A stretch of DNA of 64,000 nt from Peptococcia bacterium (GTDB taxonomy: Bacteria; Bacillota; Peptococcia; DRI-13; DTU073). Positions 8,632 through 64,000 of this stretch are shown piece by piece. The stretch covers positions 63,141 to 127,140 of the forward strand of contig JBMNJH010000012.1 of the NCBI GenBank assembly GCA_050951565.1. The letters are read 5' to 3'. The stretch's first letter is position 1, and each line of letters starts with the position of its first letter. The notes under the pieces were generated by a model that had not been told where the DNA came from, did no database searches, and saw only the letters and a program-made list of their open reading frames with translations. The position numbers and the translations under genes were made by a program.

Positions 8632-8703
8632 TGTTTCTTCTCCTTAGGGTAATGTATCGTAGTGATGAAAGTTGTTGCGCGTTGAACGAAGAAAATACAG
8701 GGT

Positions 8704-8943
8704 TTAGCCGGCCTTTTCCACGAGAATTTTGCTGGCCATTTGACGGCCCAGGGCGATTCGGCTGCTGGAGAGGGCAATCAGCACCGGACCCCATCCGTCA
8801 TTACGCACGATGTTGATTTGGGTGCCGCGGTTAAGCCCCATTTCATTGAGTCTTCTTTTTAAGCTGCTTCCGCCGGCGATTTCTTTGATGATGACCTTTT
8901 CGCCAGGTCGCATTGTAATTAAGGATTGTTGTTTTTCGCTCAT
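8704..8943 (-). CDS. feoA: FeoA-family iron transport protein
   Basis: 79 aa with an SH3-like FeoA pattern (GEKVIIKEI..RRLNEMGL..G), located directly upstream of feoB. Confidence 0.85.
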   Translation of the reverse strand: MSEKQQSLITMRPGEKVIIKEIAGGSSLKRRLNEMGLNRGTQINIVRNDGWGPVLIALSSSRIALGRQMASKILVEKAG

Positions 8944-9025
8944 TTTACGTCACCTCAGTTTTGTGTGGATGTTAAAGCAGAGTAGTGATGAATCGAACAA
9001 GGATGATTTAGTGACAATAAAAAGC

Positions 9026-9463
9026 TTACAGATCGGACTTAAGTAATTCGGCAGCTTTTTTAAGGTCAAGGTCGCTGCTGATTTGGTAGTTGCCTTTTTC
9101 CAGAAAAGCAATCATACCGGCAATGGTTTGGGGACTAATGACATGTTCGATTAAGCAGGCATCTTTGTTGGCGATATCGGCATCTACTTGCAATACGGTC
9201 ACCAGGAATTCGCGGATGATTTTGTGCATCTTTTTCACTTTTAACGCGGCCAGTTCGCCTTTTTTGGTCAGCGAAACAGGGCCGTATTTTTCTTTCAGCA
9301 CCATTTTTTCATTAATCAAAGTATCAATGGCTTGGGTTGCGCTTGCTTTGGTAATATTAAGAGCGTTGGCGATATCCGTAATGCGCGTGGAATGATTGTT
9401 TTCCGATAGTTGAAGAATTACCTCCAGATAGTCCTGGGTCGAGGGTGTAAGTGCTTTACTCAT
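9026..9463 (-). CDS. DtxR/MntR-family metal-dependent transcriptional repressor (no SH3-like C-domain)
   Basis: Has QDYLEVI, a winged HTH (ITDIANALNITKASATQAI) and a metal-site/dimerisation region. First gene of the dtxR-feoA-feoB string. Confidence 0.85.
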   Translation of the reverse strand: MSKALTPSTQDYLEVILQLSENNHSTRITDIANALNITKASATQAIDTLINEKMVLKEKYGPVSLTKKGELAALKVKKMHKIIREFLVTVLQVDADIANKDACLIEHVISPQTIAGMIAFLEKGNYQISSDLDLKKAAELLKSDL

Positions 9464-9488
9464 CTCGGGCTCACTTCCCTTTAGTAAA

Positions 9489-9508
9489 AAATGTTAGGCT
9501 TACCTAAC
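9489..9508. promoter_or_regulatory. candidate DtxR/IdeR-type operator in the promoter region of the dtxR-feoAB operon
   Basis: aaatgttagGCTTACCTAAc. The right half matches CTWACCTWA 9/9 and the left half partly. The core palindrome is gttagg-ctta-cctaac. Confidence 0.5.
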
Positions 9509-9632
9509 TTATTTATAACCTATTTTTTGTCCCTCGTCAATAGTGAAAAAAGTTGTCGCCGTGAAACAAGGAAAGGATGGCATTTTGGCCCCGCATATGT
9601 TATATTTTGGTTGGAATGAGGAGGAATGGCAA

Positions 9633-10256
9633 TTGAAAAAGTTAATCATGACGTTTTTGTGTGGGATGTTTATATTTGCCGCCTGTACCGGCCAGGTTTG
9701 GGGAGCCGAAATTACCGTTTATCTTAACGGAAAACAAGTGGAATTTCCCGAGCAAAAACCGATCATCGTCGAGGATAGGACCATGGTTCCATTTCGGGTA
9801 ATCGCTGAACATCCCGATGTGCAAGGAGAAGTAAGTTGGAACGGCGAAGACCGTAGTGTGACCATTATCGATCGTTCCGGCAAAAGGGTAATCTTCGGGC
9901 TCGACACGGCAACCTACCGGATTATCGAGGGTCCAGGCAGTGACAATGAGGACAATGATCTTAACGACAATAACGGGGAAAAAGAAAAGGCCGGGGACAG
10001 TGTAGAGAGCACAGAGAATACAGACCGGGCGGACAGGAGCGTGGTGAAGGAAAACGATGTGGCTCCGGTGGTGTTGGAGAACCGGCAAATCATGTTGCCC
10101 CTGCGCGCTTTTGCGGAAGCATTTGATTTTGAAGTGAATTGGGATGGAACAACGAGGAGTGTAAGCATCACGGAAAAAGAAGGGTATACGCGACTTCTTT
10201 TGTCACCGGAGGAATGGGTAGCCCGGTTGAACAAGAATAAGGATGAACCCTTGTGA
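9633..10256 (+). CDS. secreted copper-amine-oxidase N-terminal-domain ('stalk' domain) protein, paralogue 1
   Basis: Two copies of the LNGK..F....P......MVP.R..AE / LPLRA.AE..DF.V.WD pattern. TTG 9633 lies 7 nt after gaggagga and gives the signal peptide MKKLIMTFLCGMFIFAACTGQVWG. The track starts at GTG 9543. Confidence 0.75.
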   Translation: MKKLIMTFLCGMFIFAACTGQVWGAEITVYLNGKQVEFPEQKPIIVEDRTMVPFRVIAEHPDVQGEVSWNGEDRSVTIIDRSGKRVIFGLDTATYRIIEGPGSDNEDNDLNDNNGEKEKAGDSVESTENTDRADRSVVKENDVAPVVLENRQIMLPLRAFAEAFDFEVNWDGTTRSVSITEKEGYTRLLLSPEEWVARLNKNKDEPL

Positions 10257-10436
10257 GGACCATGGGGGTGCCGGTAAGGTTTACCGGCGGGACCGAAAGC
10301 GTATGTAGGTGTATCCTTAATGTAAAATCGTTCCTTGTTTTTATTTGGTGCATAGTGTAAAATTGTGATAAGAAAAAGATAAAAAAAGTGTAAAAAACAT
10401 TGGGTTTTGTAAGTAATATTAAGGAGGAAAACACCC

Positions 10437-11240
10437 ATGAAAAAAATCACAATTTTATTGTTACTTGCATTTATTTTGACAATGCTGGGAACAGTGGTAG
10501 CATGGGGTGCGAGTACGAGAGACAAGATTGCGGATTATACTGTTCAGTATAGGTATCTAAATGGCATAAGTTCAGCTTTAACTTATGATATTTACGAAGA
10601 GCCCGGTCGTTCGAATGATGAGGTAATTGAAAGTACCTTAAAAAAAGTTCGGGCATCGAATAATAAAGATATTTTCCGGATTACCCATGTGAATGACAAA
10701 GAGATCAGTCGTACCAAATGGGCGAAATATGGGGGAGTCATTAATAGCCGATTCAAAAATGATCCTGCAGGGGTCAAGGCCGCGTCGAAGCCGCCCACAA
10801 CGTCCACTAAAGAGGTAAGGGTGTTTATCAATGGCAAACAGGTTACTTTCCCAGACCAGAAGCCCATTATTATTCAGGGACGCACGATGGTTCCCATGCG
10901 GGCGGTTTTTGAACATCCAGATGTGCAGGCACAAGTAGTATGGAATGAGAAAAACCGCACCGTAACCGCTACGGACCGTTCCGACAAGACGATTGTCTTT
11001 AAGATTGGCGACAACTATTACACGGTGAAAACCGGTTCCAAAGAAGAAAAGAAATACTCCGATGTGGCACCTCGCATCCAAAGCGGCCGAACCCTGTTGC
11101 CCTTGCGGGCTTTGTCCGAGTCCCTTGATTTTGAAGTGAACTGGATTGACAACGAGCGGAAAGTCGACATCAAGGAAAAACCGGGGAACAAACGTAAACT
11201 ACTGCCAGCGGAGGAATGGGAAAAAATCCTGAAAAAATAA
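10437..11240 (+). CDS. secreted copper-amine-oxidase N-terminal-domain protein, paralogue 2
   Basis: aaggagg RBS, a signal peptide, and a C-terminal half that by eye is highly similar to the 12960..13799 product. Confidence 0.8.
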   Translation: MKKITILLLLAFILTMLGTVVAWGASTRDKIADYTVQYRYLNGISSALTYDIYEEPGRSNDEVIESTLKKVRASNNKDIFRITHVNDKEISRTKWAKYGGVINSRFKNDPAGVKAASKPPTTSTKEVRVFINGKQVTFPDQKPIIIQGRTMVPMRAVFEHPDVQAQVVWNEKNRTVTATDRSDKTIVFKIGDNYYTVKTGSKEEKKYSDVAPRIQSGRTLLPLRALSESLDFEVNWIDNERKVDIKEKPGNKRKLLPAEEWEKILKK

Positions 11241-11267
11241 ACCCGTAAAGATTAATAGCGCACGATT

Positions 11268-11297
11268 AAAACCGGCAGAGCACCTGCCGGTTTTATT
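11268..11297. terminator. bidirectional intrinsic terminator
   Basis: aaaaccggcag-agcac-ctgccggtttt, followed by tatt. Confidence 0.7.
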
Positions 11298-11346
11298 ATG
11301 CGCACCAAACCATTTCTGAGGATTAAATTGGGAGGATGAAAAAGAT

Positions 11347-12768
11347 TCATGGCAGAACGGGCGGGAGGCCGTCGATTAATTGATTGATCGTTACCGGATA
11401 AATGTTTTTTTGCGCAGCAAAGCTGATTAACTCATCGCTGAAACCGTTTTTGGAAAAAAGATAATAATATACTCTGGCGGTATTGTTGCTTGGTTTAAAC
11501 TTGGCAAGAAGAGTATTTAAATCTTTCAAGTTAAAGGGGGCATTTTTGAATTTGCATTCACCGATGAGAAAATGGTTTTTCTCCTTATCGGTGGCCATGA
11601 TGTCTAGCTCGTCCGTCTTGTCCCACCAGCGCCCAATTTTGGTAAAGCGGAAAGGTAGTCTTTCTTGCCTGTTGAGCTTTCTTAAATATTCTCGGCAAAT
11701 CAGTTCAAAGCTCCTCGAGGTAAATTGGTTTAAAGAAGGTTTTACAACCTGATGAAAAACGCCATCTATGTCCCCTGTTTCCAGTTCTGATATACAGGGG
11801 AAAACGAAAGCGTACCAAAAACGGAAGAAGTTGTCGGTAATTTGATACAGCCCTCTTTGAAAGCTCGCTTGTTTCTTAATGCTTTCGGAAACGGGAACCT
11901 CTCGCTCGATAATCCCTAAATCGATCAGGTTTTTTAAATATACCGTCAGCTTATTTTTGTCAATTTGGGTTTTTTGATAGATTTCATTAAGTTTGGTATT
12001 ACCTAAAGCGATTGCTTCAATAATCGTGTTGTAGATGGTGGTTTCCCGTAATTCTTGCCTTATTAAGAATTCTATTTCGGAATAGAGGATACTACCTTTT
12101 TGAAGGATGTTTGCTTTGATGTTTTTCTCCAGTGATTGATTATGATCAAATTGTTTTAAATAGTGGGGGATACCTCCCAGGATGGCATAGGCATATATTT
12201 TCTCCAGATGAGGGTATTTGGGGAAGAATTGAATAGCGTCATAAAAGTCCATTTTGCTCATTTTTAAGATGCCGGTTGCTCTGCCGTAAAGGGGATTTTT
12301 TTCCGCTAATACTTCTTTTTCGATAAAAGACATGGCACTGCCGCAAAGAATGATCATTACATTTTCTGCTTTGAGTTTTTCATCCCATAGTTTTTGTAAT
12401 AGAGAAGGGATAGAGCGATTATTTTTGATCATGTAGGGAAACTCATCGATAATCAGTAGTTTTTTTCCTTCTGAAGGCAATTCGGATACACAGGCAAAAG
12501 CCTGTTCCCAGTCGGCAAACTCGCGCAAGTATTTGGCTGCAGGAACATTCTTTTTAAGCATTCTCGCACTGAAGTCTTTAAGCTGTTTTTCATTCGTACT
12601 TTCGGTACAGGTATAAAAGACATGGTCTTTTCCTTCGCAAAACTTACGCAGGGTTTCAGTCTTTCCGATACGGCGACGACCGTATACCACAATGAGTTGA
12701 CCGCCTTTACTACGGTATTTATCTTCTAAGAATTGCAGTTCGTTTTTTCTGCCGATAAACATCCGCAA
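11347..12768 (-). CDS. AAA-type ATPase of the archaeal-ATPase/DUF234 family
   Basis: Walker A GRRRIGKT, Walker B LLIIDEFPY, and a C-terminal winged-helix plus DUF234-like tail. 473 aa. Confidence 0.75.
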   Translation of the reverse strand: MRMFIGRKNELQFLEDKYRSKGGQLIVVYGRRRIGKTETLRKFCEGKDHVFYTCTESTNEKQLKDFSARMLKKNVPAAKYLREFADWEQAFACVSELPSEGKKLLIIDEFPYMIKNNRSIPSLLQKLWDEKLKAENVMIILCGSAMSFIEKEVLAEKNPLYGRATGILKMSKMDFYDAIQFFPKYPHLEKIYAYAILGGIPHYLKQFDHNQSLEKNIKANILQKGSILYSEIEFLIRQELRETTIYNTIIEAIALGNTKLNEIYQKTQIDKNKLTVYLKNLIDLGIIEREVPVSESIKKQASFQRGLYQITDNFFRFWYAFVFPCISELETGDIDGVFHQVVKPSLNQFTSRSFELICREYLRKLNRQERLPFRFTKIGRWWDKTDELDIMATDKEKNHFLIGECKFKNAPFNLKDLNTLLAKFKPSNNTARVYYYLFSKNGFSDELISFAAQKNIYPVTINQLIDGLPPVLP

Positions 12769-12959
12769 GCCCCCTTAATTTATCAAATCACGATTATTAT
12801 AATCTAGATTTGATTATATTACATTATTTACCTGTTGTCAAGCAAGGGAAAATTCTATTACATTTTTGGCATTGGTTGAAACTGTTGCTATATTTTTGTA
12901 TAATAATACACGTTAGTACTTGTGGAATATTTAGTATGGGGTTAAGGGGGCAGGATGCT

Positions 12960-13799
12960 GTGAGCAAGAGTAGGAAATCAAAGGTTATCATATTATTGCT
13001 TATTGTTGTTTTAACAAGTGCAAGTTCAGTCGAGGTCTGGGGAGAATTGCCCGGGTATGAGAATGTTGTTAGAAGCTATAAAATAGCCGATTATACCGTG
13101 GAGGTTCGACGCCCCGATGGCAGGCAGCTTATTAGAACTTTTCCAGTTTACAATAGTACAATCTACACAGATGATGAGATGATTGAAGCATCTTTAAAGA
13201 GTTGCTGGACAAATAATGAAAGAGAGCTCTATCGTATCACTCATGTTAACGGTAAGCCAATTGAGCAGACGAAATGGGCTAAATACGGGGGAGTCATCCA
13301 GCATGTAGGTAGAAACTTGATGTTTTCGTATGTACCATTGGAGCCTGCCGTTACCGAGGTGGCCGTGTTCATTAATGGAAAGCAGATTGAGTTTCCCGAC
13401 CAAAAGCCGATCATTATGCTTGGAAGGACAATGGTACCCATGCGGGCAGTTTTCGAGCATCCGGATGTCCAGGCGCAGGTAATCTGGAATGAGGATGAAG
13501 AAACCGTTACGGCTACAGACCGTTCCGGGAAAACCATCGTTTTTCGGATCGGGGAAGAGAATTACCGGGTTAAAACAGGTAACAAGGAAGAACTGAAACA
13601 ATCAGATGTTGCCCCGTTAATTCAAAACAGTCGCACATTGCTTCCGCTACGGGCTTTGGCGGAATCGCTGGATTTTAAGGTGGATTGGATCGGGGAAGAA
13701 AAGAAAGTTGAGATAAAAGAAAAACCGGGGACTAAGCGTAAACTTTTGTCTCCCGAGGAGTGGGCAACCTTTTTAAAGCAGGGGGGGAACACTCAATGA
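12960..13799 (+). CDS. secreted copper-amine-oxidase N-terminal-domain protein, paralogue 3
   Basis: Shares the N-module (IADYTV..RITHVNGK..TKWAKYGGVI) and the C-terminal stalk domains with paralogue 2. GTG 12960 follows aaggggg and gives the signal MSKSRKSKVIILLLIVVL. The track start at 12810 is unlikely, and ATG 12936 is possible. Confidence 0.7.
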   Translation: MSKSRKSKVIILLLIVVLTSASSVEVWGELPGYENVVRSYKIADYTVEVRRPDGRQLIRTFPVYNSTIYTDDEMIEASLKSCWTNNERELYRITHVNGKPIEQTKWAKYGGVIQHVGRNLMFSYVPLEPAVTEVAVFINGKQIEFPDQKPIIMLGRTMVPMRAVFEHPDVQAQVIWNEDEETVTATDRSGKTIVFRIGEENYRVKTGNKEELKQSDVAPLIQNSRTLLPLRALAESLDFKVDWIGEEKKVEIKEKPGTKRKLLSPEEWATFLKQGGNTQ

Positions 13800-16675
13800 G
13801 AAAACTTCGAAAGTGGAAGTTATCCGTCGTAATATTTTTTCTGGTTTATATAATTACAAGCATCCTGCCGGCAACTTCATTGCCGGTTTTTGCTGCCGCT
13901 CCCCGTTTTGGCATTGATGAATATAACTCCCGACAGATTAAAGACAGCTTCGCAGAAACCGGTTTTCCCTTTCAGGTAGCGTGGTCTTGTGATTTAAAAG
14001 GGAAGGTTAACAGCCAGCCGATTATTGTGGACGGGAATGTCTATGTTCAAGCCGGAAAAGATTTAGTAAAACTATCGTTAGCAGATGGCAAGATTCTGGG
14101 CAGAGTAACAGTAAACAATCATGAGTTACCTTCCGGTTCGTCACCGACTTATGCTAAGACGACTCATGGATCGAGGATTTATCAGGCCACCCGTGATCAC
14201 CGGCTCTGGGCAATTGAGCCGGAAACCTTGAAGCCAATTTGGGATGAACCCTTAATTTTATCTTATGACGGGAAGAATTATGATAAGCGTTACCGGGTCA
14301 CCGCCAGTCCTTTTGTGTATATTCATAATAACCGGACATATATTGCGATAGGCACGGCCAATGGGGACGGCACGGGTCTCCCCGGACAGTATAAGGATAA
14401 CGGTTTCTTCATTATTCAGGATAAGGGTTTCGAAGCACAGGTTGTTTTTAGTGGTAAGTTTGAAGGAGAAGTTACTGGTTCTCCCATTTTTCATCAGGGG
14501 ATGGTTATTGCCACGGAAAATACGCAGAGAGCAGAATCAATGTTGATCAGGTATTCACCGGAGCTGAATCACTACATTTCAATAAATTGTAAACTTCCTT
14601 TTTGTATACCCGGTTCACCGGCAGCAGAAGGCGAATACATTTACGTTGCGGATAGGGAAGGGTGTATCTATAAATTCCATAACAAAAATGCAAATGAAAT
14701 ATGGGCAAATCCTTTCGAACAAGGTGAGTTCGACTTTAATCGGCCACATAACAGCTACAACCTTATGTCACCCACCATTGGTAGCAAATATATCTATCTG
14801 CCGATTCGGAACTACCATAGTAGAGCCACGGGCGGTTCCGGAGCGGTGGTCGCAGTAGATAAAGAAACAGGCTTAACCCATAAAGTGCGCAAGTTTAACA
14901 CGATTCTTCGCTCCAACCTGCTTTACTGGAAACCCTCCCCGGAGTCAGAGCAGGATTATGTATTTGTTTTTGCCTATGACGGGACGGCCTGGGTTTTGGA
15001 TGGACATACCCTTGAGCCTGTACCGTGGTTTTATGACAAGACGGAAAATAGGGTCAAGGAAGTGGTAGAGCTCTTTCCTGTGAGGTCGGGCAGTGATTCC
15101 CCTGAGATGGTTATCGCCGAATCCCACCTTTTGATTACCGATGGCCAAGGCATTATGCATGCGTATAAAGCGGAAGAGCCGATAAACTTCAAAGCAGTAT
15201 CCTTAGAACCGGTGGAACAGGTTCCGGGTGAGGCGAAGGCGGGATATGAGGGCGGCGAGGAGGTCCAGCTTCAATTCACCGTGGAAAACACTTCCCCTGT
15301 CGATTACAGGAATATTCCGATCGTCCTCACTGAGCCGGACGGCACAACTATTCCCGGTGGTACTATAGACTTAGCGGCCGGGGAAAGAAAAACCGTGGTG
15401 CCTTGGACCGTGGAAGTGCCTCCTTCCGACAGTCTGCTTTATCAGGCGACCATCAACCCCGAAGGGCATCCCCAGGAAATCACGGCGGAGGTAAAACCAC
15501 GGATTGATAATACCGCCGAAGTGGAGCTGAATAAAAAGAGTCATGATATTGAGGTAGTGTCCTTGTCGGTGGAAACGCCTACTGATGCCGGGAAGGTGCA
15601 AAACATTGAAGCGGTGATTGTCAATAATACCGGGAGCGAACTGCCGGAGGTGGTCGTCCAATGGCAGGAGGACAGCCAGGTGATTCGTGAAGAAAAGGTA
15701 TCCTTTGCCGTGGGAGAGACCAAAACCCTTTCCTTTGCCTGGCGCGCCCCGGACCGTGAAGATATTATCAATCTGGCCGTGTTGGTTGATCCGGCAGAGC
15801 TCTTGCCGGATACCAACCGGGCCAATAATTTCAAAGAACAATACATTACCGTGCGCAAGCAAGTCCAGCGTAGTTGTACCGAGCCTTTGGAAAGGGCCAG
15901 TTGGGACGTAACCTACAACATTATTGAAGGGTATAATAAGAAAAGAGTATCGTATACCGTGACGGAAAGAGATGAAAACGGGAACGAGGTAAAAAGGCGC
16001 AAGTCGAAATGGGTGACCGATTACAACAACCCGATTTGGAAACCGGTTACCGTCACCTATAACGAAGCGCTTTCCGTGGAAGTCAAAGTGAACACCAAAC
16101 AGGGGATAGCCACCGATCCTAAAAACCCCAAGGAAAGCGACCGGGAAAGCCGGGGTTCCTGGGCCATTATCCCTTATGCTGAGGAACTGTCGAAAAAATT
16201 AGGCAGGCGCGTTGACCCAAATGAGATTACCCGGGCCGGGTATGGTTTTGAAGTAACCGTAGTGACGGATTACCAGAATGACTGGGAAACCAAAGTGCCC
16301 GAGGGTCTGGAGGATACCGCCCAGCCCATTGGAGGAACTTTTAACGGGCCGAAACAGGTCTTCGCGGAATTCTACGATACGAATAACCGCTTTGTTACCG
16401 CTGTGGAAATGGAAAGGGTGTCGGGCAGCAAGGGAACGGGGAAAGCCACCTGGAAGCTGCCGGAAAAGAAGTACACTTTTCAGGACCGAACAACAGTCTT
16501 TGAAAGAAAGCATTACACCAGCCCCGACATCAAGGACGGCGATTACACGGTGCTGGTGCGCGTGGAATACGCAGGCAAGAACGGGCTCTATACCTGCAAA
16601 CAAAAGGTCGTGAAGATTTGGGGCAGTATGTATGATGATTTTTACACCGCCCCTGTGCCCCGCAACCGGCGGTAA
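13796..16675 (+). CDS. large secreted protein: PQQ-like beta-propeller, two CARDB-like domains and an unassigned ~300-aa C-terminal region
   Basis: ATG 13796 overlaps the upstream stop (ATGA). N-terminal signal or anchor. BamB/PQQ-like blades (GNVYVQAG..L, IYVADREGCIYKF). CARDB signatures (..NTS.., ..DTNRANNFKEQYITV). Confidence 0.7.
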   Translation: MRKLRKWKLSVVIFFLVYIITSILPATSLPVFAAAPRFGIDEYNSRQIKDSFAETGFPFQVAWSCDLKGKVNSQPIIVDGNVYVQAGKDLVKLSLADGKILGRVTVNNHELPSGSSPTYAKTTHGSRIYQATRDHRLWAIEPETLKPIWDEPLILSYDGKNYDKRYRVTASPFVYIHNNRTYIAIGTANGDGTGLPGQYKDNGFFIIQDKGFEAQVVFSGKFEGEVTGSPIFHQGMVIATENTQRAESMLIRYSPELNHYISINCKLPFCIPGSPAAEGEYIYVADREGCIYKFHNKNANEIWANPFEQGEFDFNRPHNSYNLMSPTIGSKYIYLPIRNYHSRATGGSGAVVAVDKETGLTHKVRKFNTILRSNLLYWKPSPESEQDYVFVFAYDGTAWVLDGHTLEPVPWFYDKTENRVKEVVELFPVRSGSDSPEMVIAESHLLITDGQGIMHAYKAEEPINFKAVSLEPVEQVPGEAKAGYEGGEEVQLQFTVENTSPVDYRNIPIVLTEPDGTTIPGGTIDLAAGERKTVVPWTVEVPPSDSLLYQATINPEGHPQEITAEVKPRIDNTAEVELNKKSHDIEVVSLSVETPTDAGKVQNIEAVIVNNTGSELPEVVVQWQEDSQVIREEKVSFAVGETKTLSFAWRAPDREDIINLAVLVDPAELLPDTNRANNFKEQYITVRKQVQRSCTEPLERASWDVTYNIIEGYNKKRVSYTVTERDENGNEVKRRKSKWVTDYNNPIWKPVTVTYNEALSVEVKVNTKQGIATDPKNPKESDRESRGSWAIIPYAEELSKKLGRRVDPNEITRAGYGFEVTVVTDYQNDWETKVPEGLEDTAQPIGGTFNGPKQVFAEFYDTNNRFVTAVEMERVSGSKGTGKATWKLPEKKYTFQDRTTVFERKHYTSPDIKDGDYTVLVRVEYAGKNGLYTCKQKVVKIWGSMYDDFYTAPVPRNRR

Positions 16676-45610: not shown

Positions 45611-53278
<7,668 letters not shown>

Positions 53279-53289
53279 AACAAGGGGGT

Positions 53290-54066
53290 GTGAAGTTGGA
53301 TATTTTTCTTGCTGTCATCATCGTAATCCTGCTCATGAACAGCTTCTTGTTCCTGGTTTTTAAAAGGATCGCGGTGAATGTGGGCAAGCATGCGCAGAAT
53401 TACGTGGTGCGGCAGCTCTCGGCATACGATGACCTGATTAAGAAAAAAGCACAAAAACTGCATGAATTAAATGAAGCCATCAATAACGAACAAGCCCAGA
53501 TGGCGAAGGAGCCTGTCCAAGTCAAGGAAAGCGTTCCGAAACCGATTAATCCCTTTGCTTTTTTGCCCGGAAATTATCTGGACACCAGTTTTTTAGGCAA
53601 CTATCGCAAGGTGCGGGAGTTTTTCCACTTTGATCATCGACTATGTATTAAAAATGTGCTTGAACTGTACGACACCGAGCAAGAGGACATCAAGTCTTTA
53701 CTGAGCAGGCAGATTTTAGTCCGCTTTTCCCTGGAAAACCGCTTCGGCATTGCGACCATGGAGGAGCAAGACCAATTAGCAGTTTTTAAGGAAATGTTGA
53801 ATAACGAAGAACAAAGCCTTTTGGAGGAATATTGCGCTTCCCATCCCTCGTTTGATTGTATAAGCTTTTTTGACTGGCTGGAAGTAGTATCTTTTCGTTC
53901 TAATCCTGAGGTGGTGATCCGAACCGGCGAAAGCAAAGAAAACCTGACCTGGTTAAACGACCGGATTAGGATGGAGTACGACAGCAGTATTTGCGAAGGC
54001 ATTCAGGTTGTTTTGTGGAATAAGCTTTATGATTTTTCGATACAGAAAAGGGAGTTATGCGGATGA
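53290..54066 (+). CDS. stator-like protein: N-terminal TM helix plus coiled coil (subunit b-like), with a C-terminal region showing a delta/OSCP-like motif
   Basis: TM helix IFLAVIIVILLMNSFLFLVF, then the charged helix YDDLIKKKAQKLHELNEAINNEQAQMAKE. The C-terminus EYDSSICEGIQVVLWNKLYDFSIQKREL resembles the delta C-terminus (..D.sliGG..v..gd..iD.S....L). The start is ambiguous (GTG 53290 or TTG 53296). Confidence 0.45.
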   Translation: MKLDIFLAVIIVILLMNSFLFLVFKRIAVNVGKHAQNYVVRQLSAYDDLIKKKAQKLHELNEAINNEQAQMAKEPVQVKESVPKPINPFAFLPGNYLDTSFLGNYRKVREFFHFDHRLCIKNVLELYDTEQEDIKSLLSRQILVRFSLENRFGIATMEEQDQLAVFKEMLNNEEQSLLEEYCASHPSFDCISFFDWLEVVSFRSNPEVVIRTGESKENLTWLNDRIRMEYDSSICEGIQVVLWNKLYDFSIQKRELCG

Positions 54067-55384
54067 ACGAACATTTAAATGATGTTATTCAGAAAAAAAT
54101 CGATACAATCAAACAGAAGAAAAACATTTACGAGTTGGGCCTTGTGACCAATGTCCATGACTATATCCTCGAAGTAAGTGGCCTGGAAAACGCGGCCTTT
54201 TTCGAGCACGTGGTGATTGGCGACAAGGCCGAAGGCTATGTCAACAATATCGGACGTAATACGGTGACCGTAGTGCTGGCCAAAAGAAACGCTCCGGTTT
54301 TTGTGGGCGACAAGGTGGCTGCGACCGGCGAGCAGTTTTGCGCTTTCTATTCCCCCGACTCCATCGGCCGGATTGTGGACATGTTTGGTCAGGATGTGAT
54401 GCGGGACCAGTTTTTCAGCAACCGGGAAAAAATCCCCATTGAAACGCCCCCGATCCCGATTATGGACCGGACCAGTGTGAATCGTCCCCTTTATACGGGG
54501 ATTACGGGGATTGATTTGCTTTATCCCATTGGGAAAGGGCAGCGTCAGTTGATTATCGGCGATAAGAAAACCGGGAAGACGCAAATCGCCCTTGATGCCA
54601 TCGTCAATCAACGACAGGACGAAGTGCTGTGTATCTATATTGCCATCGGAAAAACTAAAAAAGAAGTCAAAGAGGTTTACAGCGAGTTGCTTTCCCATGG
54701 GGCGATGGAGTACACGATTATTCTGGCGGCCTTCCAGGATGAATGTGCCCCGGTCTTGTGCAACACGCCCAGTGTGGGGGTTACCATTGCCGAGCATTAT
54801 ATGCTGCAAGGGATGGATGTGCTGGTGGTGATTGACGATTTGAAACAGCATGCCGACAATTACCGGGAAATCAGCCTGCTTTCCGGAAGAGTGCCTGGCC
54901 GGGACGCTTATCCGGCGGATATCTTTTTCGCCCATGCCAGTTTGCTGGAAAAAGGCTGCCAGCATAAGGACGGCGGTTCGATTACGATCCTACCGATTAC
55001 GGAAACGAAAGGCGGGGACATTACCGATTACATCTCCACCAACATTATTTCCATTACCGACGGGCAGATCGTGCTTTCCGCCAAAAACTTCGAAAAAGGG
55101 CAAAAACCGGCCATTAACTATGGCTTGTCCGTCTCCCGTTTAGGTGGCGCGGTGCAGACGAAAGAACTTAAGAAGTTAGGTTCCGTGGTGCGCCGGGAAC
55201 TGTTGTCTTATTTAGAATCACGGGCAGTTTTTGAACTGGCCAATACCGAAGAAATGAGCGAAGACTTGCGGCAGAAGATGGGAGTGGGCAGTGAAATCCT
55301 GAAGCGGATGAACCAGTACAAGTTTGAAGCCCGCGCGCCCGAAGAAATGGTCCAGCTCTTTCAAGAATTGGTGGTGGTTCCTGA

Positions 55385-55388
<4 letters not shown>
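54063..55388 (+). CDS. F1 ATPase alpha-subunit homologue (short, ~441 aa)
   Basis: GIDLLYPIGKGQRQLIIGDKKTGKT (Walker A), VLVVIDDLKQHADNYREISLL..PGRDAYPADIF, and PAINYGLSVSRLGG (Arg finger). The ATG overlaps the upstream stop (ATGA). It lacks about 60 C-terminal aa compared with typical alpha subunits. Confidence 0.85.
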
Positions 55389-57528
<2,140 letters not shown>

Positions 57529-57561
57529 GACGAGCTTTGGGACAGTAAGGAGGAGTTTTCT

Positions 57562-57903
57562 TTGGAAAACGAGGGAAGGACGGTTGAATCTACGGAAAAA
57601 GCAATCCAGCAGGAGAGCGACAGTAACGGCGCCGGCATGGAAGTGCGCATTTCCAGTTTCGAAAAAGGGCTGGAAGTGTACCAGAATGTGCTCTTTATCC
57701 GGGTGACCAGCGAGAAATACAACCTCCTTATCATGGAGGATTACATGCCCATCATCGGCAAAGTGGAGGGCAGTGTTACTTTTCTGGCGGAAGATCAGGA
57801 ACATACGCTGGAAAACATCGAAGGTTTTTTCTATCACAAACATAATGTTTTTTCGTTGTTAATAAAGGAGAGTTCCCATGTGGACGAAGATCATGCAGAC
57901 TGA
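57562..57903 (+). CDS. F1 epsilon-subunit-like protein (beta-sandwich domain only, no C-terminal helical hairpin)
   Basis: aaggagga RBS 8 nt before TTG 57562 (ATG 57637 is the alternative). MEVRISSFEKGLEVYQNVLFIRVTSEKYNLLIMEDYMPIIGKVEGSVTF fits the epsilon N-domain pattern (..v.tpeg..gilpgH.P.i..l..G.v.). Confidence 0.5.
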   Translation: MENEGRTVESTEKAIQQESDSNGAGMEVRISSFEKGLEVYQNVLFIRVTSEKYNLLIMEDYMPIIGKVEGSVTFLAEDQEHTLENIEGFFYHKHNVFSLLIKESSHVDEDHAD

Positions 57904-58462
57904 GGTACCATGGACCAATGTGATGCAGGCGCTTCTGGAATTTAAGTGGCTGGTTATGGTCACGGTGGGTGTCGGTTTGCTGGTGGGCATCATCGGCTTA
58001 TTGCTGTCCCGCAATTTGCGCTGGCATCAGAAACGGGTGAAGGTCCTGGGTGTTTTTCTTAATTTAAGCGCCCGGGATAATCTCCTGCTGTGTATTGCTT
58101 TGTCCCGGTGCCTGTTTGTGGTAAGCGCGGTCGCTTTTTGCGTGGGAATCGATACGACGCAGCTTTGTTTATTCATTATGCTGTGTATTTTATATAACCT
58201 TTTAGCCTTTCGTTTTTCCGTTTTTTTATTCGATTTGTTCAACAGCGCGGTTATCTGTGCCGCGTTACTGGTGGGCAACATTCTGACTGGCTTTTTGCAG
58301 GAGGTACGTTTCGACTGGCGCACGATTACCGTGTATGTTTTGTTGGCCATTTTTATCAGCGTTTATTCCGCCTTTTTCTTCTTGCGGGATGTGGCGCGGA
58401 TCGCGCAGCGGGAACCGAAGCGCAAGGGAATCAAGAACGAAGAGGAACAAGAAGCAACCTAA
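57878..58462 (+). CDS. 5-TM membrane protein, tentative Fo subunit a analogue lacking the conserved Arg
   Basis: aaggag RBS; overlaps the epsilon-like gene by 26 nt. About five hydrophobic helices. The TM4 segment AALLVGNILTGF resembles the subunit-a motif LRLFGNxxxG with Leu at the Arg position. Confidence 0.35.
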   Translation: MWTKIMQTEVPWTNVMQALLEFKWLVMVTVGVGLLVGIIGLLLSRNLRWHQKRVKVLGVFLNLSARDNLLLCIALSRCLFVVSAVAFCVGIDTTQLCLFIMLCILYNLLAFRFSVFLFDLFNSAVICAALLVGNILTGFLQEVRFDWRTITVYVLLAIFISVYSAFFFLRDVARIAQREPKRKGIKNEEEQEAT

Positions 58463-58484
58463 AGGGAAGAAAGGGAGACGAAAA

Positions 58485-59213
58485 ATGAACGCGATGCGGG
58501 TGCAAGGGCAAAAAAGAAGATTAAACAAGGACAGATTATTAATTATCGCGATTGTGCTCATTTGTGCGGGGCTGCTCTCCGCCGTGGCCGTATATATTTT
58601 CTTTTTGGATAACCGGTTGATTAAAGAAGATTTGTACCTTTATGATATCGGTTTTCGTTTTGATTATCCCGGCCCGTCGCGGATTCAGAAAACGGATGAA
58701 GGAATGGTCCTGAAAAACAACGGGAAAGAGCTGTTACTGCAAACAAGTCCGCTTTTTTACAAGGAAGAGGAACGCATCTTCCTGCCGACGGTCATGGTGG
58801 CTTGTTTGCCGTCCGAGCGCAAGTTTGGCCGGGTAGATTACTTTACGGAAGTTTACCGGGATCAAGACGGAATTTACGCGCAACTGGGGCGGCAAAGCAT
58901 TCCCTTAGGAAAAGGCTTTTTGCATGATGGCAAGGACCTGTATATCTTCCTGGACAACACCACGGTCAAATGGCAGGACAAGGTGGTGCGCCTGAAACCT
59001 TTTTCCTACGCCATCGTGGTTTACAACCAGCGTTTGGAGATTTATTCGGCGAAAGGCGGCGAATGTGTTTTAGAAGATACGGGTGCCTGCAAGGTAGTGG
59101 CGGAAGCGGAGAGTGGGTACCGGATCGATTTGGGAACCGATATCCTGTACCGGGCCGACGGCAATGAACAAATGTTGTTTGCCCAGCCTTCGACGCTGAA
59201 AGAGTTGAAGTAA
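58485..59213 (+). CDS. 243-aa N-terminally anchored protein consisting only of the shared juxtamembrane module
   Basis: gggagacg RBS, a basic N-terminus and TM helix LLIIAIVLICAGLLSAVAVYIFFL. The track ORF 58335.. overlaps the upstream gene, so the internal ATG is used. Confidence 0.65.
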   Translation: MNAMRVQGQKRRLNKDRLLIIAIVLICAGLLSAVAVYIFFLDNRLIKEDLYLYDIGFRFDYPGPSRIQKTDEGMVLKNNGKELLLQTSPLFYKEEERIFLPTVMVACLPSERKFGRVDYFTEVYRDQDGIYAQLGRQSIPLGKGFLHDGKDLYIFLDNTTVKWQDKVVRLKPFSYAIVVYNQRLEIYSAKGGECVLEDTGACKVVAEAESGYRIDLGTDILYRADGNEQMLFAQPSTLKELK

Positions 59214-59227
59214 GGAGGTGTCTCGGT

Positions 59228-62200
59228 TTGAAGAAGATTGTTGCTTTAGCAGTGGTTATTCTGGCGGTTTTAGTTTTTGCAAAATATTACCAGCTCCAAA
59301 CAGTGGGGATTTTGGAGAGCAATACATATGCGGTTACGGACAACCAGATCACGCAGAGTTTGTTCTCCGACCAGGTTCCCCCCGAAAAGGCGGTGCTGGA
59401 ACCAACGGTGGCGGAGTCCCTGACTCCGCTCTACGAGTTGGGCGGCAATCTTTTTCTCGGGGAGCGGAAAAATAAGCTGAATAACGCGTATCCCCTCTTT
59501 GTCAATGACGCCGTGGCCCTCATGAACGTCAACAACAGCGCAAAGCTCATCACCGAAGATTTTGAAAGAAAGAACACCTATTACGGCCTGTACGTCAGTG
59601 ACGGCCTCTCCTTTAATGCGGATAAACAGCGGGCGGATGCTGAGACCTTTATCCTGCTGGAGTTGGCCAATAAGCTGTATATCAATGCCCGGCCCATGGA
59701 AGTACATACCATTTGCGGCGATGTCCTGATCCCGATGAACGGGGTTGTCAATTTTCAGGAAGATGCTATTCGTTATTACACTTTGGAGAAAGGGAAGTTC
59801 CACTACAAGGAAATCCCGAGAGTGGACGAGCAGACCTGGGTGCGTTTTGCCGGCAAAAAATACCCCTATTATGACTTTTTAATCGGCCTGGGCAAGCTTA
59901 AAGAACCTTCCGGGCAGGCAAGACCTGCTCTTCAGGAAGAGGAAGCCCCGCCTGAAATCCCGGAGCGGGAGGAGGAAGAAGGAAAAGCGCAGGAGGAGCC
60001 GGTGGAGCCGGCCGAATCTCCGGTGCTGAAGCCGGAAGCGCCTGAAAAAACCAAAGCAAGCTTCCGGAAGCCGCGGCTTTCGATGACCGATTTCCGGGTC
60101 AATTCGATCCAAAGGACCGCGGAGACGACCCTAAGCATCCACGACCCCTCAGGGGTCCTGACCGGTGCGATTCAGGTGATCATCCGGGACGAAAAAGGTA
60201 ATGCGCAAAGTTGGACCTTTACGAACTATGCCGAAGCGCAAAAAGGGATTTTGCAGCCTGTGGCCTTCTTTGATAACCTGGAAAACGGGATGACCTATAC
60301 CGCATACGGGACATATAGCTATATAGACGCCGACGGGCAAAAACAGACGGAGTTCTTTGGCTGGAAGACCTTCCAGGTGGAAGAGCGGCTAATCTATTTC
60401 TTTGATCTGCTGGAGATCAAAGAAGAGCCGGAGCCGGAACCGGAGTTTGTCCCCGTCAAGCCGCAGGTTAGCTGTGAGCCTTTTGTGGCATCGATTTATG
60501 ATTTGCATTCCACGTTGACCATTCACGAACGGGGCAGCCTGGTGACCGGCGGCATCCGTTTTGAGGTCTATCATGATGAGCGCATGTATATGCGCAAAAC
60601 GGTTTCGGCAAGTGGGGAATTAACCCTCGGTCCTTTGCCGCCCGCCACGGAATTTAAAATCATCGGGTACATTACCTACTTAAATGAATACAAAATAAAG
60701 GTGGAGGAAAAGTTTTTCGAACAGACCATTGCCACACTTCCGCTGGATCAGTTGGAGCCCATGTCCTTGTCCTTCCAAAACGGCAAGATCTTTTATGACC
60801 GCATTCAAATTGTGGACTTGTGTTTTGTCGATGACCCTGCGGACAGCAACCGGAAAATCGGCGCCGGTACCATTCCCTATGTGGCGAAAATTGCCGTCCT
60901 GATTGACAATAATACTTACGGCTTAAAGCCGGCCCAAATCAGCGCCATGCAGGAGGGCGGCAAAGTAGAGTATGAAACCCCGGCGGTATTGCGTTCCAAT
61001 CAGAAATACCGGTACAGAATTGTCTGTTTGGACCGGTTTGGTAACGAGTTGCCATTGACGGAGCCGGCGGAAGGGGAGACTCATACCTGTAAAGCGCCGC
61101 CGAAAGCGATTATCCGGTTGACCACCAATGAAGTGGCCAATACGGAGCTTACGGTCGAGATTGAAAACAAGGACCATGTGGAAGCGCAGAATTACCGGAT
61201 TGCCTTGTATGATATCAATGATCATTTAATCCACACGGTCAGAAGGACAGAAGGCGGGGAGGATTCCGAAGCCTCGACCCACCATGACCTGCCGGAGGAC
61301 GGCGGTAAAATCACCTTTACGAATCTGAGTGCCGGTGCGGCCTATACGGCCGTGGTCTATGCCGATTATGACCTGGACAACGGTGAAGGGATACAGGAAA
61401 ACATGGAAATCGGGCGGATTCGTTTTACGACCCTGTCCATTTCCGCGCTGGGTTATGCCATTTTTACAACGGAAGTAACGGAACTGACCGATCAGGAGGC
61501 CACCTTAACCATTTCTCTCGACAAAAACCGGACCAATCCCCAATTGCAGTTTTTACTGGATAAGGTTACGGTGCTCATTACCGGCCCCGATGGTGAGGAA
61601 ATTATGACCGTATCCCTGACGGAAGAGGAACTGGCCCGGTTCGTGGCCGGCGACGGGGAACCTTTCCAAATCGAACTAGAGAACCTGCTGAGTTCCACCG
61701 AATATGGAATTACTATTCTGGCGGAGGTAGAGCAAGGCGGGGAGATCCATGATATTAAAACGTCCAATAGCATCGATGGTTTTAAGACCCTCAAGACCGA
61801 GCCGGAGGTTGTGATCAGTTCCTATTTTTCCATTTCCAATGCCATTGAGCTGTATGACGTGATCATCAACGATCCGGACGGGGCGATTCTGAGCCATGTT
61901 AACCTGCTGGTAACGGACAGTTACGGCCGGGTGGTGGGTTCGCGCATCCTCCAGGCGAATACCCTTTATGAGACGCTCGTTTTCCCGAAACTGATTAAAA
62001 ACGAGATGTATACCTTTACCTTTGTGGCCACCGAGTTTAACAAAGGGTATGACTATACCACTTTTGAGACCCTGTATGAGCTTAAACCGGTTTATCAGAT
62101 TATCAATGAAAACAAGCTGGCCGGTGAAATCGGGCTGCAGAGCCTTGACGAGATTACCGGTGACAATGACCATTACCTGGCGAAACTGCGGGTACAAATC

Positions 62201-62488
62201 AGTGATGAGACCCAGTTGCTGCTTGAAGAGCCATACTATACCATCAAGGTATTTAAGGAAGAAGAGCAGGTTGATGCTTTGGTCTACGATATTGAGCCTG
62301 CCGGTTCCGATGTGGATCATATTTTCACCTATCAGGTTGATGCGATGAGCGAATATCGTCTGGAATTATGGGTAAAGGTGCGTGACCATGAGTTCAAGCT
62401 GGATGATACATCTTTTACCACGGAGCAACCCATTATTGGGCTTGCCACGTTCAGGATTTTAACAAGTCAAAACGAATACGAGCGGTAA
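59228..62488 (+). CDS. giant (at least 1086 aa) N-terminally anchored surface protein: juxtamembrane module, Pro/Glu-rich linker and FN3-like array. It probably continues beyond a frameshift at ~62470
   Basis: aaggagg RBS 9 nt before the TTG. TM helix IVALAVVILAVLVFA. Linker QEEEAPPEIPEREEEEGKAQEEPVEPAESPVLKPEAPEK. FN3-like signatures LENGMTYTAYGTYSY, NLSAGAAYTAVVYADY, LLSSTEYGITILAEV. Confidence 0.75.
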   Translation: MKKIVALAVVILAVLVFAKYYQLQTVGILESNTYAVTDNQITQSLFSDQVPPEKAVLEPTVAESLTPLYELGGNLFLGERKNKLNNAYPLFVNDAVALMNVNNSAKLITEDFERKNTYYGLYVSDGLSFNADKQRADAETFILLELANKLYINARPMEVHTICGDVLIPMNGVVNFQEDAIRYYTLEKGKFHYKEIPRVDEQTWVRFAGKKYPYYDFLIGLGKLKEPSGQARPALQEEEAPPEIPEREEEEGKAQEEPVEPAESPVLKPEAPEKTKASFRKPRLSMTDFRVNSIQRTAETTLSIHDPSGVLTGAIQVIIRDEKGNAQSWTFTNYAEAQKGILQPVAFFDNLENGMTYTAYGTYSYIDADGQKQTEFFGWKTFQVEERLIYFFDLLEIKEEPEPEPEFVPVKPQVSCEPFVASIYDLHSTLTIHERGSLVTGGIRFEVYHDERMYMRKTVSASGELTLGPLPPATEFKIIGYITYLNEYKIKVEEKFFEQTIATLPLDQLEPMSLSFQNGKIFYDRIQIVDLCFVDDPADSNRKIGAGTIPYVAKIAVLIDNNTYGLKPAQISAMQEGGKVEYETPAVLRSNQKYRYRIVCLDRFGNELPLTEPAEGETHTCKAPPKAIIRLTTNEVANTELTVEIENKDHVEAQNYRIALYDINDHLIHTVRRTEGGEDSEASTHHDLPEDGGKITFTNLSAGAAYTAVVYADYDLDNGEGIQENMEIGRIRFTTLSISALGYAIFTTEVTELTDQEATLTISLDKNRTNPQLQFLLDKVTVLITGPDGEEIMTVSLTEEELARFVAGDGEPFQIELENLLSSTEYGITILAEVEQGGEIHDIKTSNSIDGFKTLKTEPEVVISSYFSISNAIELYDVIINDPDGAILSHVNLLVTDSYGRVVGSRILQANTLYETLVFPKLIKNEMYTFTFVATEFNKGYDYTTFETLYELKPVYQIINENKLAGEIGLQSLDEITGDNDHYLAKLRVQISDETQLLLEEPYYTIKVFKEEEQVDALVYDIEPAGSDVDHIFTYQVDAMSEYRLELWVKVRDHEFKLDDTSFTTEQPIIGLATFRILTSQNEYER

Positions 62489-64000
62489 ATTTATTGTGCT
62501 GAATGATATTGATGTGACGTCAGGGCCGCTTCTTGGGTCGGCTGACTCTTTTAACGGGGAGTTGGATTTTCAGGGTTATACGCTGCATAATAGCAAGGGT
62601 ACTTACTTATTTCGCATTTGGGTAAAAACGGGTATCATTAAAAATATGGTACTTGATGTGACGATCCCGTATACTGATCCGATGCGTTACCGGGCTTTAT
62701 TGCTTATGTTTCCAGGGGACGGATGGAGAATATTATGGTGAACGTAAAAGGTTGTACCGAGTTATCTGCATAATGACTGGGGACTTTTTTGTCCATAACA
62801 GTGCGACCGGCGTGATTGAAAACTTTGTGGTCAATCTGGAAAGTCCGCTTTATGTTTGGAGAAATTTGGGTGTGTACGCATATAACAGCGGGATGGTACG
62901 AAACGGTTATGTGTATGGTAGCGATATTGAACTGCCTGATATTGAGGTGGATGGGGGCTATACTGCCTCTAATTTTGGCGGGATTGTGGGCAGAAACGAA
63001 ACAGCCGGACGGGTGGAAAATGTCTTTTCTCTGGTCAATATCCGTACCGGCACACTGGTCACGCCTAGCAAGAACAATTTTGGCATGATTGTGCGGCGTA
63101 ACAATGGGACAGTGAAGGGTGCTTTTACCACGGGAGAGGTCTATTTCGGAGGGGCAAATGACCTGCGCTATGGCCCGGCGGTAGGCCGTCAGGGCGGGAT
63201 GCTGCAGACTGATGCTTACTACATTTCGGAAAGACTCTACCTATACGAATACATATAACGCGAAAGTAAGCAAGGAAACGCTCTATGATCCATTGTGGCA
63301 CAAGGCCGTCCTGGGGGATATGTTTGACACGGAGACACTGGTCTTAATGGGTTATTACCCCCAATTAAAGCTGCCCGATTGTATGCCGGCCCAGCCTTAT
63401 CTGCCCTTGCCGGAGTTAAATGTTGCCGATGCGGTGGATCTGGCCAGCGTAATGGTCGAAGAGCAGTACGAGGATTACGCTATCGCCCGGTTTACCTTTA
63501 ATAACCCCTATGGCTATACGATTAAGAGCGTGGGGGTCGAATACCTCAATGCCACCATTATCCCGGACAGCCAGGAGGATAAAGATGGACTCACCCGTGT
63601 GCTGGTGCGCTTGGATAACCCCACTAAGTTTTATTCCAGCTACAATGTCCTTTATTTCGGATACGGTGTTTCCGCTAGCAGTCCAACGACTTTGCGCCAC
63701 TATCAAAAAGGAGAACGTCTGGTCAATGCAGAGTTTTTTAAGCCAATTCGCACAATTGAAGATTGGGCATCTATAGAGGATAGCTTAGAGCAGAACTATC
63801 GTTTGAAAGAGGATTTGGATTTTAATAATACTCCGCCGCAATTAATCCGCATTGGGGAAAATGATGCTAATCAATTTACCGGCAAACTGGATGGCGGTAT
63901 TTATGACAAAAACATGAAATGTATTGGGATGCATACTATTCGTAATCTTGATTTATCCATTGGCTTAGGAGGAGTGATCACTAATTTAAAAGGTTCGGTT
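62463..64000 (+). pseudogene. GLUG-type repeat (beta-helix-like) surface-protein coding region broken by at least 4 frame changes; 3' end open at the window edge
   Basis: Coding-like translation moves from frame 3 (62463-62741) to frame 2 (62678-62773), frame 1 (62662-63258) and frame 2 (63185-64000, no stop). Motifs: SFNGELDFQGYTLHN, GFIAYVSRGRMENIMV, NFGGIVGRNETAGRVENVF, QFTGKLDGG..HTIRNLDL, GLGGVITNL. Confidence 0.65.

Follow-up and report, generated by a model that had tools for sequence, protein, structure and literature searches.

What does a gene encode when its reading frame closes at a stop codon but the coding signal beyond the stop continues in one frame after another? One end of a 64,000-nt stretch of DNA from a Peptococcia bacterium (GCA_050951565.1, contig JBMNJH010000012.1, positions 63,141-127,140, forward strand), called the window here, raises this question. 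An ORF of 1086 aa (59228-62488) ends there at a TAA; past 62488 the coding signal persists but jumps between frames until about 63235, after which a single frame stays open to the window end. The first-pass annotation offered three causes for these frame changes: local gene decay, slippage-prone or phase-variable sites, and localised sequence error.

Relatives were sought with a hand-joined translation as query against 5.8 billion proteins, which returned three at 60-69% identity, each a fragment. Their contigs (L001, L002 and L003), together with three genome loci from a species-representative collection (L004, L005 and L006), make up a comparison set of six. L004, from a Peptococcia MAG, is the closest relative of the window (79% DNA identity over 11 kb), while L005 and L006 come from the Peptococcaceae MAGs UBA5318 and UBA5356. 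L002 is a 134-kb JGI metagenome contig (JGI 3300053716, Ga0534105_01056), and L001 represents the same species in another assembly. An exact look-up of the 1086-aa protein in the contig collection returned no record, and two metagenome scans, one with protein patterns and one with a degenerate DNA pattern for KETLYDPLWH, turned up no independent copy of the window species. Lesions were placed by a MAFFT alignment of the seven sequences, a blastn gap list and a frameshift-aware protein-to-DNA alignment. An edit test was then applied: single-site edits were introduced at the lesions of the window, and the corrected ORF was aligned to L004, L005 and L006.

In the relatives the junction is read straight through. 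One uninterrupted ORF makes up the orthologue in L005 (3172 aa) and in L006 (3170 aa); in L004 a 2893-aa ORF runs unbroken across the junction and beyond, the sole break lying near the 5′ end of the gene (L004 ~7603). L001 passes the junction in one frame ("...FTTEQRIIGLSTINDFSQLSSNPTGKYIVLNDIELT..."), and the apparent shift at the junction in L003 is a run of N, a scaffold gap. Since the orthologues are uninterrupted at this point, the end of the 1086-aa ORF and its continuation in the next frame form one unit, as the first-pass annotation had proposed in describing them as a single repeat unit; L001, L005 and L006 all bear this out. Comparison with orthologous loci, which that annotation had suggested as a check, thus yields single intact ORFs in L005 and L006, and the indels of the window are absent from all six relatives.

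The 1086-aa ORF is the N-terminal part of a giant surface-protein gene (59228-62488, + strand), collinear with L005 6890-16408 and L006 6905-16417. Its TTG start at 59228 is preceded by the Shine-Dalgarno sequence "aaggagg," and its product has an N-terminal hydrophobic anchor or signal followed by an Ig/FN3-like array, in which the fn3 profile match is sub-threshold. The TAA that closes it at 62488 is a product of upstream frameshifts. From 63236 to 64000 (+ strand) the edit test identifies an undisrupted continuation of the same gene, in frame mod2, in which the next beta-rich, GLUG-like module begins and which runs off the window end. Eight single-site edits suffice to join these parts into a single ORF from 59228 to 64000, with 1592 codons and zero stops. 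Aligned to L004, the corrected product shows 82% identity across 1328 aa and one gap; its alignment with L006 (63% identity) runs end to end, and that with L005 (60%) nearly does. The real gene is almost certainly one ORF of about 3170 aa, with an N-terminal membrane anchor, an Ig/FN3-like array and several beta-rich, GLUG-like modules. The gene for the giant surface protein closes an operon that encodes a non-canonical F1-like ATPase; a literature search on F1-like ATPase clusters in Clostridia found nothing usable.

The name given to the distal modules deserves some care. GLUG repeat units open with the pattern "I..L..I....G.Y.L..DID......F.G.ldG.GhtI.nL." The window shares this opening with the GLUG-motif, beta-rich modules of large Gram-positive surface proteins (PF07581) and has a weak Pfam Glug match, but the scores of 18.3 bits (window fragment) and 19.3 bits (L006) fall below the gathering score of 20.5, and a PDB sequence search with the first beta-rich modules gave zero matches. 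The "GLUG-repeat region" of the first-pass annotation therefore stands as a description of the repeat pattern, while as a family label it is weak. An AlphaFold2 model of a fragment from an intact homologue (P0001), built from a six-sequence alignment, reached a mean pLDDT of 41, too poor for fold comparison.

Measured against the intact orthologues, at least eight indels in the interval 62449-63235 shift the frame (five deletions and three insertions), and one further deletion, of 3 nt, is in frame; all are given here on the + strand. None of the sites is shared with any of L001 to L006. The first two are 1-nt deletions, at 62449-62450 (TT in the window, TTT in L004; frame mod2 to mod1) and at 62466-62467 ("aagtc" in the window, "aagatc" in L004; mod1 to mod0). 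A compensating pair follows: a 1-nt deletion in a T run at 62609-62610 (TTT vs TTTT) and a 1-nt insertion at 62630-62633 (GGG/T) that restores frame mod0, and between the two (62609-62633) the true reading, "SHLGKNG," lies in the other frame. These four were located by MAFFT alignment, blastn gaps and the edit test. The other four were located by MAFFT alignment, protein-to-DNA alignment and the edit test: a 1-nt deletion at 62692-62693 (mod0 to mod2), across which the orthologues read RYRGFIAY; a 1-nt insertion of an extra T at 62762-62763 (mod2 to mod0); a 2-nt deletion at 62793-62794, directly 3′ of a T6 run (mod0 to mod1); and a 1-nt insertion within 63230-63235, at about 63234 (mod1 to mod2), where the orthologues read YYISE(T/R)STY. 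The in-frame deletion, at 62869-62870, was placed by MAFFT and protein-to-DNA alignment and removes the Cys codon of "FGCVAAYN" relative to all orthologues.

The first-pass annotation was right that the frame is disrupted, although its count of at least four changes was too low. It had confined the first shift to 62463-62488; two deletions are involved, the earlier of them (62449/62450) upstream of that interval. Its step from frame 2 to frame 1 before 62773 likewise resolves into two, by way of a short frame-0 stretch, "YLHNDWGLF," and the compensating pair was missing from its list. Its proposal to add one G near 62692-62694 agrees with the deletion aligned at 62692/62693. The lesions leave two ORFs, 62496-62741 and 62752-63258 (81 and 168 aa), both spurious on the corrected model. 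As the annotation had noted, no Shine-Dalgarno sequence precedes 62496 or 62752; genuine operon starts carry GGAGG-like sites.

The lesions are exceptionally concentrated. All eight events fall within 777 bp, against zero detected in the remaining ~62 kb of the window; under a uniform spread the chance of finding all eight in one such span is about (777/64000)^7, or 4e-14, which rules out a uniform process of error or mutation. Long ORFs tile the remainder of the window, and its large housekeeping genes have complete domain coverage; full-length genes include those for PurL (1305 aa), pyruvate carboxylase (1143 aa), two P-type ATPases, HtpG and a DHH/CBS protein. Within the cluster, deletions and insertions are mixed at a density of about one per 100 bp, most of them in runs of 1-4 nt. 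The 770 bp immediately 3′ of the cluster (63236-64000) contain zero indels.

The part of the gene in which the cluster lies is hypervariable and mosaic. L002 carries at least 18 frameshifts, every one of them within aa 1079-2572 of the giant gene. Up to that range, over its first 1079 aa, the giant protein of L002 is intact, and so are the ATPase genes and the genes further downstream. Over 21 kb, L001 and L002 differ by 0-1 mismatch per 500 bp in most bins (maximum 11) outside L002 9000-14000, and by 5-26%, with third-position bias, within it. This zone of divergence coincides exactly with the L002 frameshift zone, which marks the frameshift zone as a hypervariable allelic cassette. The frameshifts of L002 sit in sub-segments that are 5-14% diverged, and a 25%-diverged sub-segment stays open as one clean ORF of 502 aa. 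The same pattern recurs in the window, with lesions in a moderately diverged part (12.7% from L004) and none in the strongly diverged stretch next to it (22.6%).

Identity to L004 also changes abruptly along the window. The 10.6 kb preceding 63602 are about 79% identical to L004, whereas 63602-64000 (+ strand) matches the L004 allele at 398 of 399 aligned bases, a single mismatch, and the change at this point is either a mosaic breakpoint or a chimeric join. Mismatch to L004 at third positions stands at about 35% upstream, drops to about 17% in 62200-63050 and rises to about 50% in 63050-63600. Some motifs cross species lines: "PFNYDNN" is found in both L002 and L003, as against "PWNWDNN" in L001 and "PWNWNGN" in L006. 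The locus thus resembles mosaic, recombining surface-protein genes in its 5-26%-diverged alleles, bounded within otherwise near-identical strains, in its abrupt identity switches and in its motifs common to several species; the difference is that mosaicism itself creates no frameshifts. A diversity-generating retroelement was weighed as a possible origin of the variation and dismissed, given that the divergence spans kilobases, includes indels and is third-position- rather than adenine-biased; no reverse transcriptase occurs among the recorded Pfam matches for called genes of L001 and L002.

Disruption of the frame relative to intact orthologues, in a segment under diversifying or recombinational turnover, could reflect a real and very recent inactivation, in which the 1086-aa Ig/FN3-array protein alone would be made and the beta-rich GLUG-like part would be a pseudogene of recent origin. 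Selection might favour the loss of such an exposed, hypervariable surface module, for example as an escape from phage or predators. The window and L002 both retain the N-terminal 1080-1096 aa and break just past the domain junction, and the single break of L004 falls in the same giant gene. We nevertheless regard this reading as unlikely, at about one chance in five.

The substitution record contains no evolutionary footprint of inactivation. The share of window-versus-L004 substitutions that fall on third positions of the orthologous frame is 65% in the cluster, compared with 64% and 70% in the flanks. At codons identical in L004, L005 and L006, the window differs at 2 of 129 in the cluster (1.6%), compared with 9.1% upstream and 6% downstream. 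With L005 and L006 as outgroups, amino-acid changes in the cluster number 2 specific to the window and 9 specific to L004; this count, and the lack of stops once the frame is corrected, give no sign of relaxed selection on the window lineage. Base substitutions exceed indels several-fold in bacterial mutation spectra from mutation-accumulation work, and on the assumption that this holds here, eight neutral indels should have brought with them additional substitutions by the tens and probably a stop as well; none are seen. A single frameshift would already suffice for inactivation, and later ones would accumulate only at the neutral rate.

The distribution of lesions is equally hard to reconcile with inactivation. 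Decay of a dead gene should extend through all of its distal part, and the clean 63236-64000, where about eight indels would be expected at cluster density, counts against this; so do the 366 bp before the recently exchanged segment, with zero indels against about 3.8 expected. L001, the second assembly of the L002 species, has none of the L002 indels. What the locus shares with bacterial frameshift-decay pseudogenes is the disrupted frame and the premature stop at 62488; what sets it apart is the unrelaxed constraint, the absence of corrected-frame stops and of downstream lesions, and the pairing of many indels with essentially no substitutions. Of the causes first offered, local decay thus fits poorly, and long-standing decay in particular appears, from the sequence, very unlikely. 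Still less probable, to our minds, is a wider version in which at least two Peptococcia lineages truly carry their indels, with the exposed, GLUG-like part of a hypervariable, recombining cassette knocked out at the domain junction as a genuine mechanism of diversification or escape. If true, an indel-specific mutational process, or population heterogeneity, would be acting on the cassette as such a mechanism.

Localised sequence error fits best among the three original causes, and we put the probability at roughly 70% that the frame changes stem from local errors in the consensus of a segment that is a mosaic of strains or species. Reads of divergent alleles may have piled onto one contig, or the path may rest on one or a few reads; consensus calling and polishing would then fail locally, leaving about one indel per 100 bp and an accurate remainder of the contig. 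Reads of a co-occurring, moderately diverged allele would align to the contig and corrupt the consensus, and strongly diverged reads would fail to align. Localised intra-population heterogeneity can leave regions of long-read metagenome assemblies unpolishable (proovframe preprint, 10.1101/2021.08.23.457338). Residual frameshift errors in long-read genome and metagenome assemblies, which gather where such heterogeneity or low depth stops polishing from working and which the same work addresses, are close to the case of the window in several respects: 1-base indels split a gene into adjacent ORFs of differing frame, the lesions are absent from relatives and lie in a strain-variable region, the remainder is accurate, and the frame is restored by a guide protein. 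The window differs in that its lesions crowd into a very tight cluster of 777 bp, to which the detected haplotype switch is not directly adjacent.

Several observations are those that consensus error would lead one to expect. Removal of the lesions, absent as they are from the orthologues, restores a collinear ORF open to the window end with no stops; constraint and codon periodicity are unchanged in the cluster; and the cluster coincides with a strain-variable region, as judged from the L001/L002 zone and from the breakpoint of the window at 63602. Others count against it. The 366 bp adjoining the identity switch (63235-63601) are clean, which a simple model of errors at a haplotype junction, predicting errors closest to the junction, does not explain. 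A runs test on third codon positions, applied to the cluster and to controls, gave no significant sign that two haplotypes had been blended block by block (z ~-1 in each). The window and L002 are also alike in where the frame is first disrupted, no more than about 10 codons from the point at which the Ig array meets the beta module, a position that would also be expected under selection for a truncated protein. On balance, the cluster of frame changes is most likely not real as a biological feature.

Phase variation at a contingency locus, with simple-repeat slippage toggling the distal part of the protein, is a highly improbable account. Like phase-variable contingency loci that work by homopolymer or simple-sequence-repeat (SSR) slippage, this is a surface-protein gene, in a variable region, that loses frame by 1-nt length changes, and several of the indels touch short runs (TT/TTT, TTT/TTTT, GG/GGG). 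The resemblance ends at the sites themselves, where there is no SSR or long homopolymer and where many lesions stand together at non-repeat positions. TRF found no tandem repeats; homopolymers in the cluster reach T6 at most, and the indels do not centre on the longest of them. Searches for inverted repeats of an invertible element found none, and no DNA repeats of note able to drive slippage, inversion or misassembly were present. Elsewhere in the window, 31 runs of 7 nt and one of 8 nt are associated with no broken genes, and the orthologues have no expanded tracts at the lesion sites. Eight simultaneous off-states would make no sense for a switch, and the slippage-prone sites of the first-pass annotation accordingly find no support.

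Programmed recoding (ribosomal frameshifting or transcriptional slippage) or truly separate small genes would account for the resumption of coding signal in a new frame after each shift, but is the least credible reading of all: the shift sites are conserved in 0 of 6 relatives, with L005 and L006 shift-free in the gene, the shifts of the other four at different sites and intact single ORFs the rule; no recoding signal fits a 2-nt deletion or a compensating pair whose members are separated by 21 nt; and the putative small genes, lacking Shine-Dalgarno sequences, are consecutive pieces of one domain alignment. Taken together, the unshared sites, third-position bias, relative rates, clean downstream sequence and absence of repeats lead us to reject both phase variation and recoding, and the same five tests leave two options: consensus error, or real lesions of very recent date produced by a process specific to indels.

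If consensus error is the cause, as we favour, the finding is chiefly a caution. Read literally, the window gives a 1086-aa protein and spurious ORFs of 81 and 168 aa in place of a surface protein of about 3170 aa, and annotation, pangenome and pseudogene counts that take it so would be misled. The by-products are a corrected gene model and evidence of a mosaic hot spot, at both strain and species level, in the central segment. A segment this hypervariable and mosaic is hard to assemble, and the hot spot is one likely reason for the failure of its assemblies. What remains of biological interest is the mosaic, hypervariable central segment of the giant protein itself, together with its operon context.

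Two assemblies of one species, L001 and L002 (the latter a 134-kb JGI metagenome contig), are near-identical across 21 kb, most 500-bp bins holding 0-1 mismatch; the exception is a bounded 5-kb cassette within the gene for the giant surface protein (L002 9000-14000, amino acids ~1079-2572 of the protein) that is 5-26% diverged. Differences between the two copies of this cassette show a third-position bias and include many in-frame indels. Motif variants occur across species: PFNYDNN is common to L002 and L003, a further relative; its counterparts are PWNWDNN in L001 and PWNWNGN in L006 (Peptococcaceae MAG UBA5356). The cassette is a hypervariable, recombining segment of the surface protein.

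In the window, DNA identity to the closest relative, L004 (Peptococcia MAG JBMNJI010000006.1, a different species), is about 77-79% until position 63602, where it changes abruptly: from there to the window end (63602-64000, against L004 ~11279-11677), 398 of 399 aligned bases are identical in the DNA alignment. Such near-identity to the allele of another species reflects either a chimeric join in the assembly or very recent inter-species recombination within the giant gene.

Other copies of the locus are also disrupted. In L004, probably a long-read assembly to judge by its contig name (contig_27203) and its isolate tag ("LR"), the giant gene carries one frameshift at ~7603 in its N-terminal part, between ORFs 6894-7628 and 7694-16375; the matching site is intact in the window. 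The L001 contig (ENA ERZ2647865, NODE_227) has a low coverage of 1.4, and indels break up all of its genes, among them those for the alpha-like and beta-like ATPase subunits, which are in pieces. Scattered over the whole locus, whereas the pattern is localised in the window and in L002, these indels illustrate an assembly with errors spread uniformly. In the giant protein, the N-terminal domain is followed by an acidic, proline-rich low-complexity linker (window 59900-60100; EEEAPPEIPEREEEEGKAQEEPVEPAESPVLKPEAPEK). Alignments of the window with L004 contain small, mutually compensating gaps here, which look like alignment noise from low-complexity sequence and not frameshifts.

The giant gene is the last of an operon whose preceding members (window 45647-59213) are syntenic in L002, L004, L006 and L005 (Peptococcaceae MAG UBA5318). 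These encode a collagen/fn3 protein (1817 aa), a 598-aa protein, a c-subunit-like protein (53030-53278, 82 aa), a 258-aa protein, three F1 subunit-like proteins (alpha-like, 443 aa; gamma-like, 263 aa; beta-like, 451 aa), and small membrane proteins. Neither the alpha-like nor the beta-like subunit reaches the NCBIfam cut-off for its canonical counterpart (atpA and atpD); both score about as well against F1-like ATPase families of mycoplasmas (MMOB1660/1670, gliding; MSC_0618/0619). Separate study may be warranted for a non-canonical F1-like ATPase tied, in Peptococcia, to giant surface proteins.
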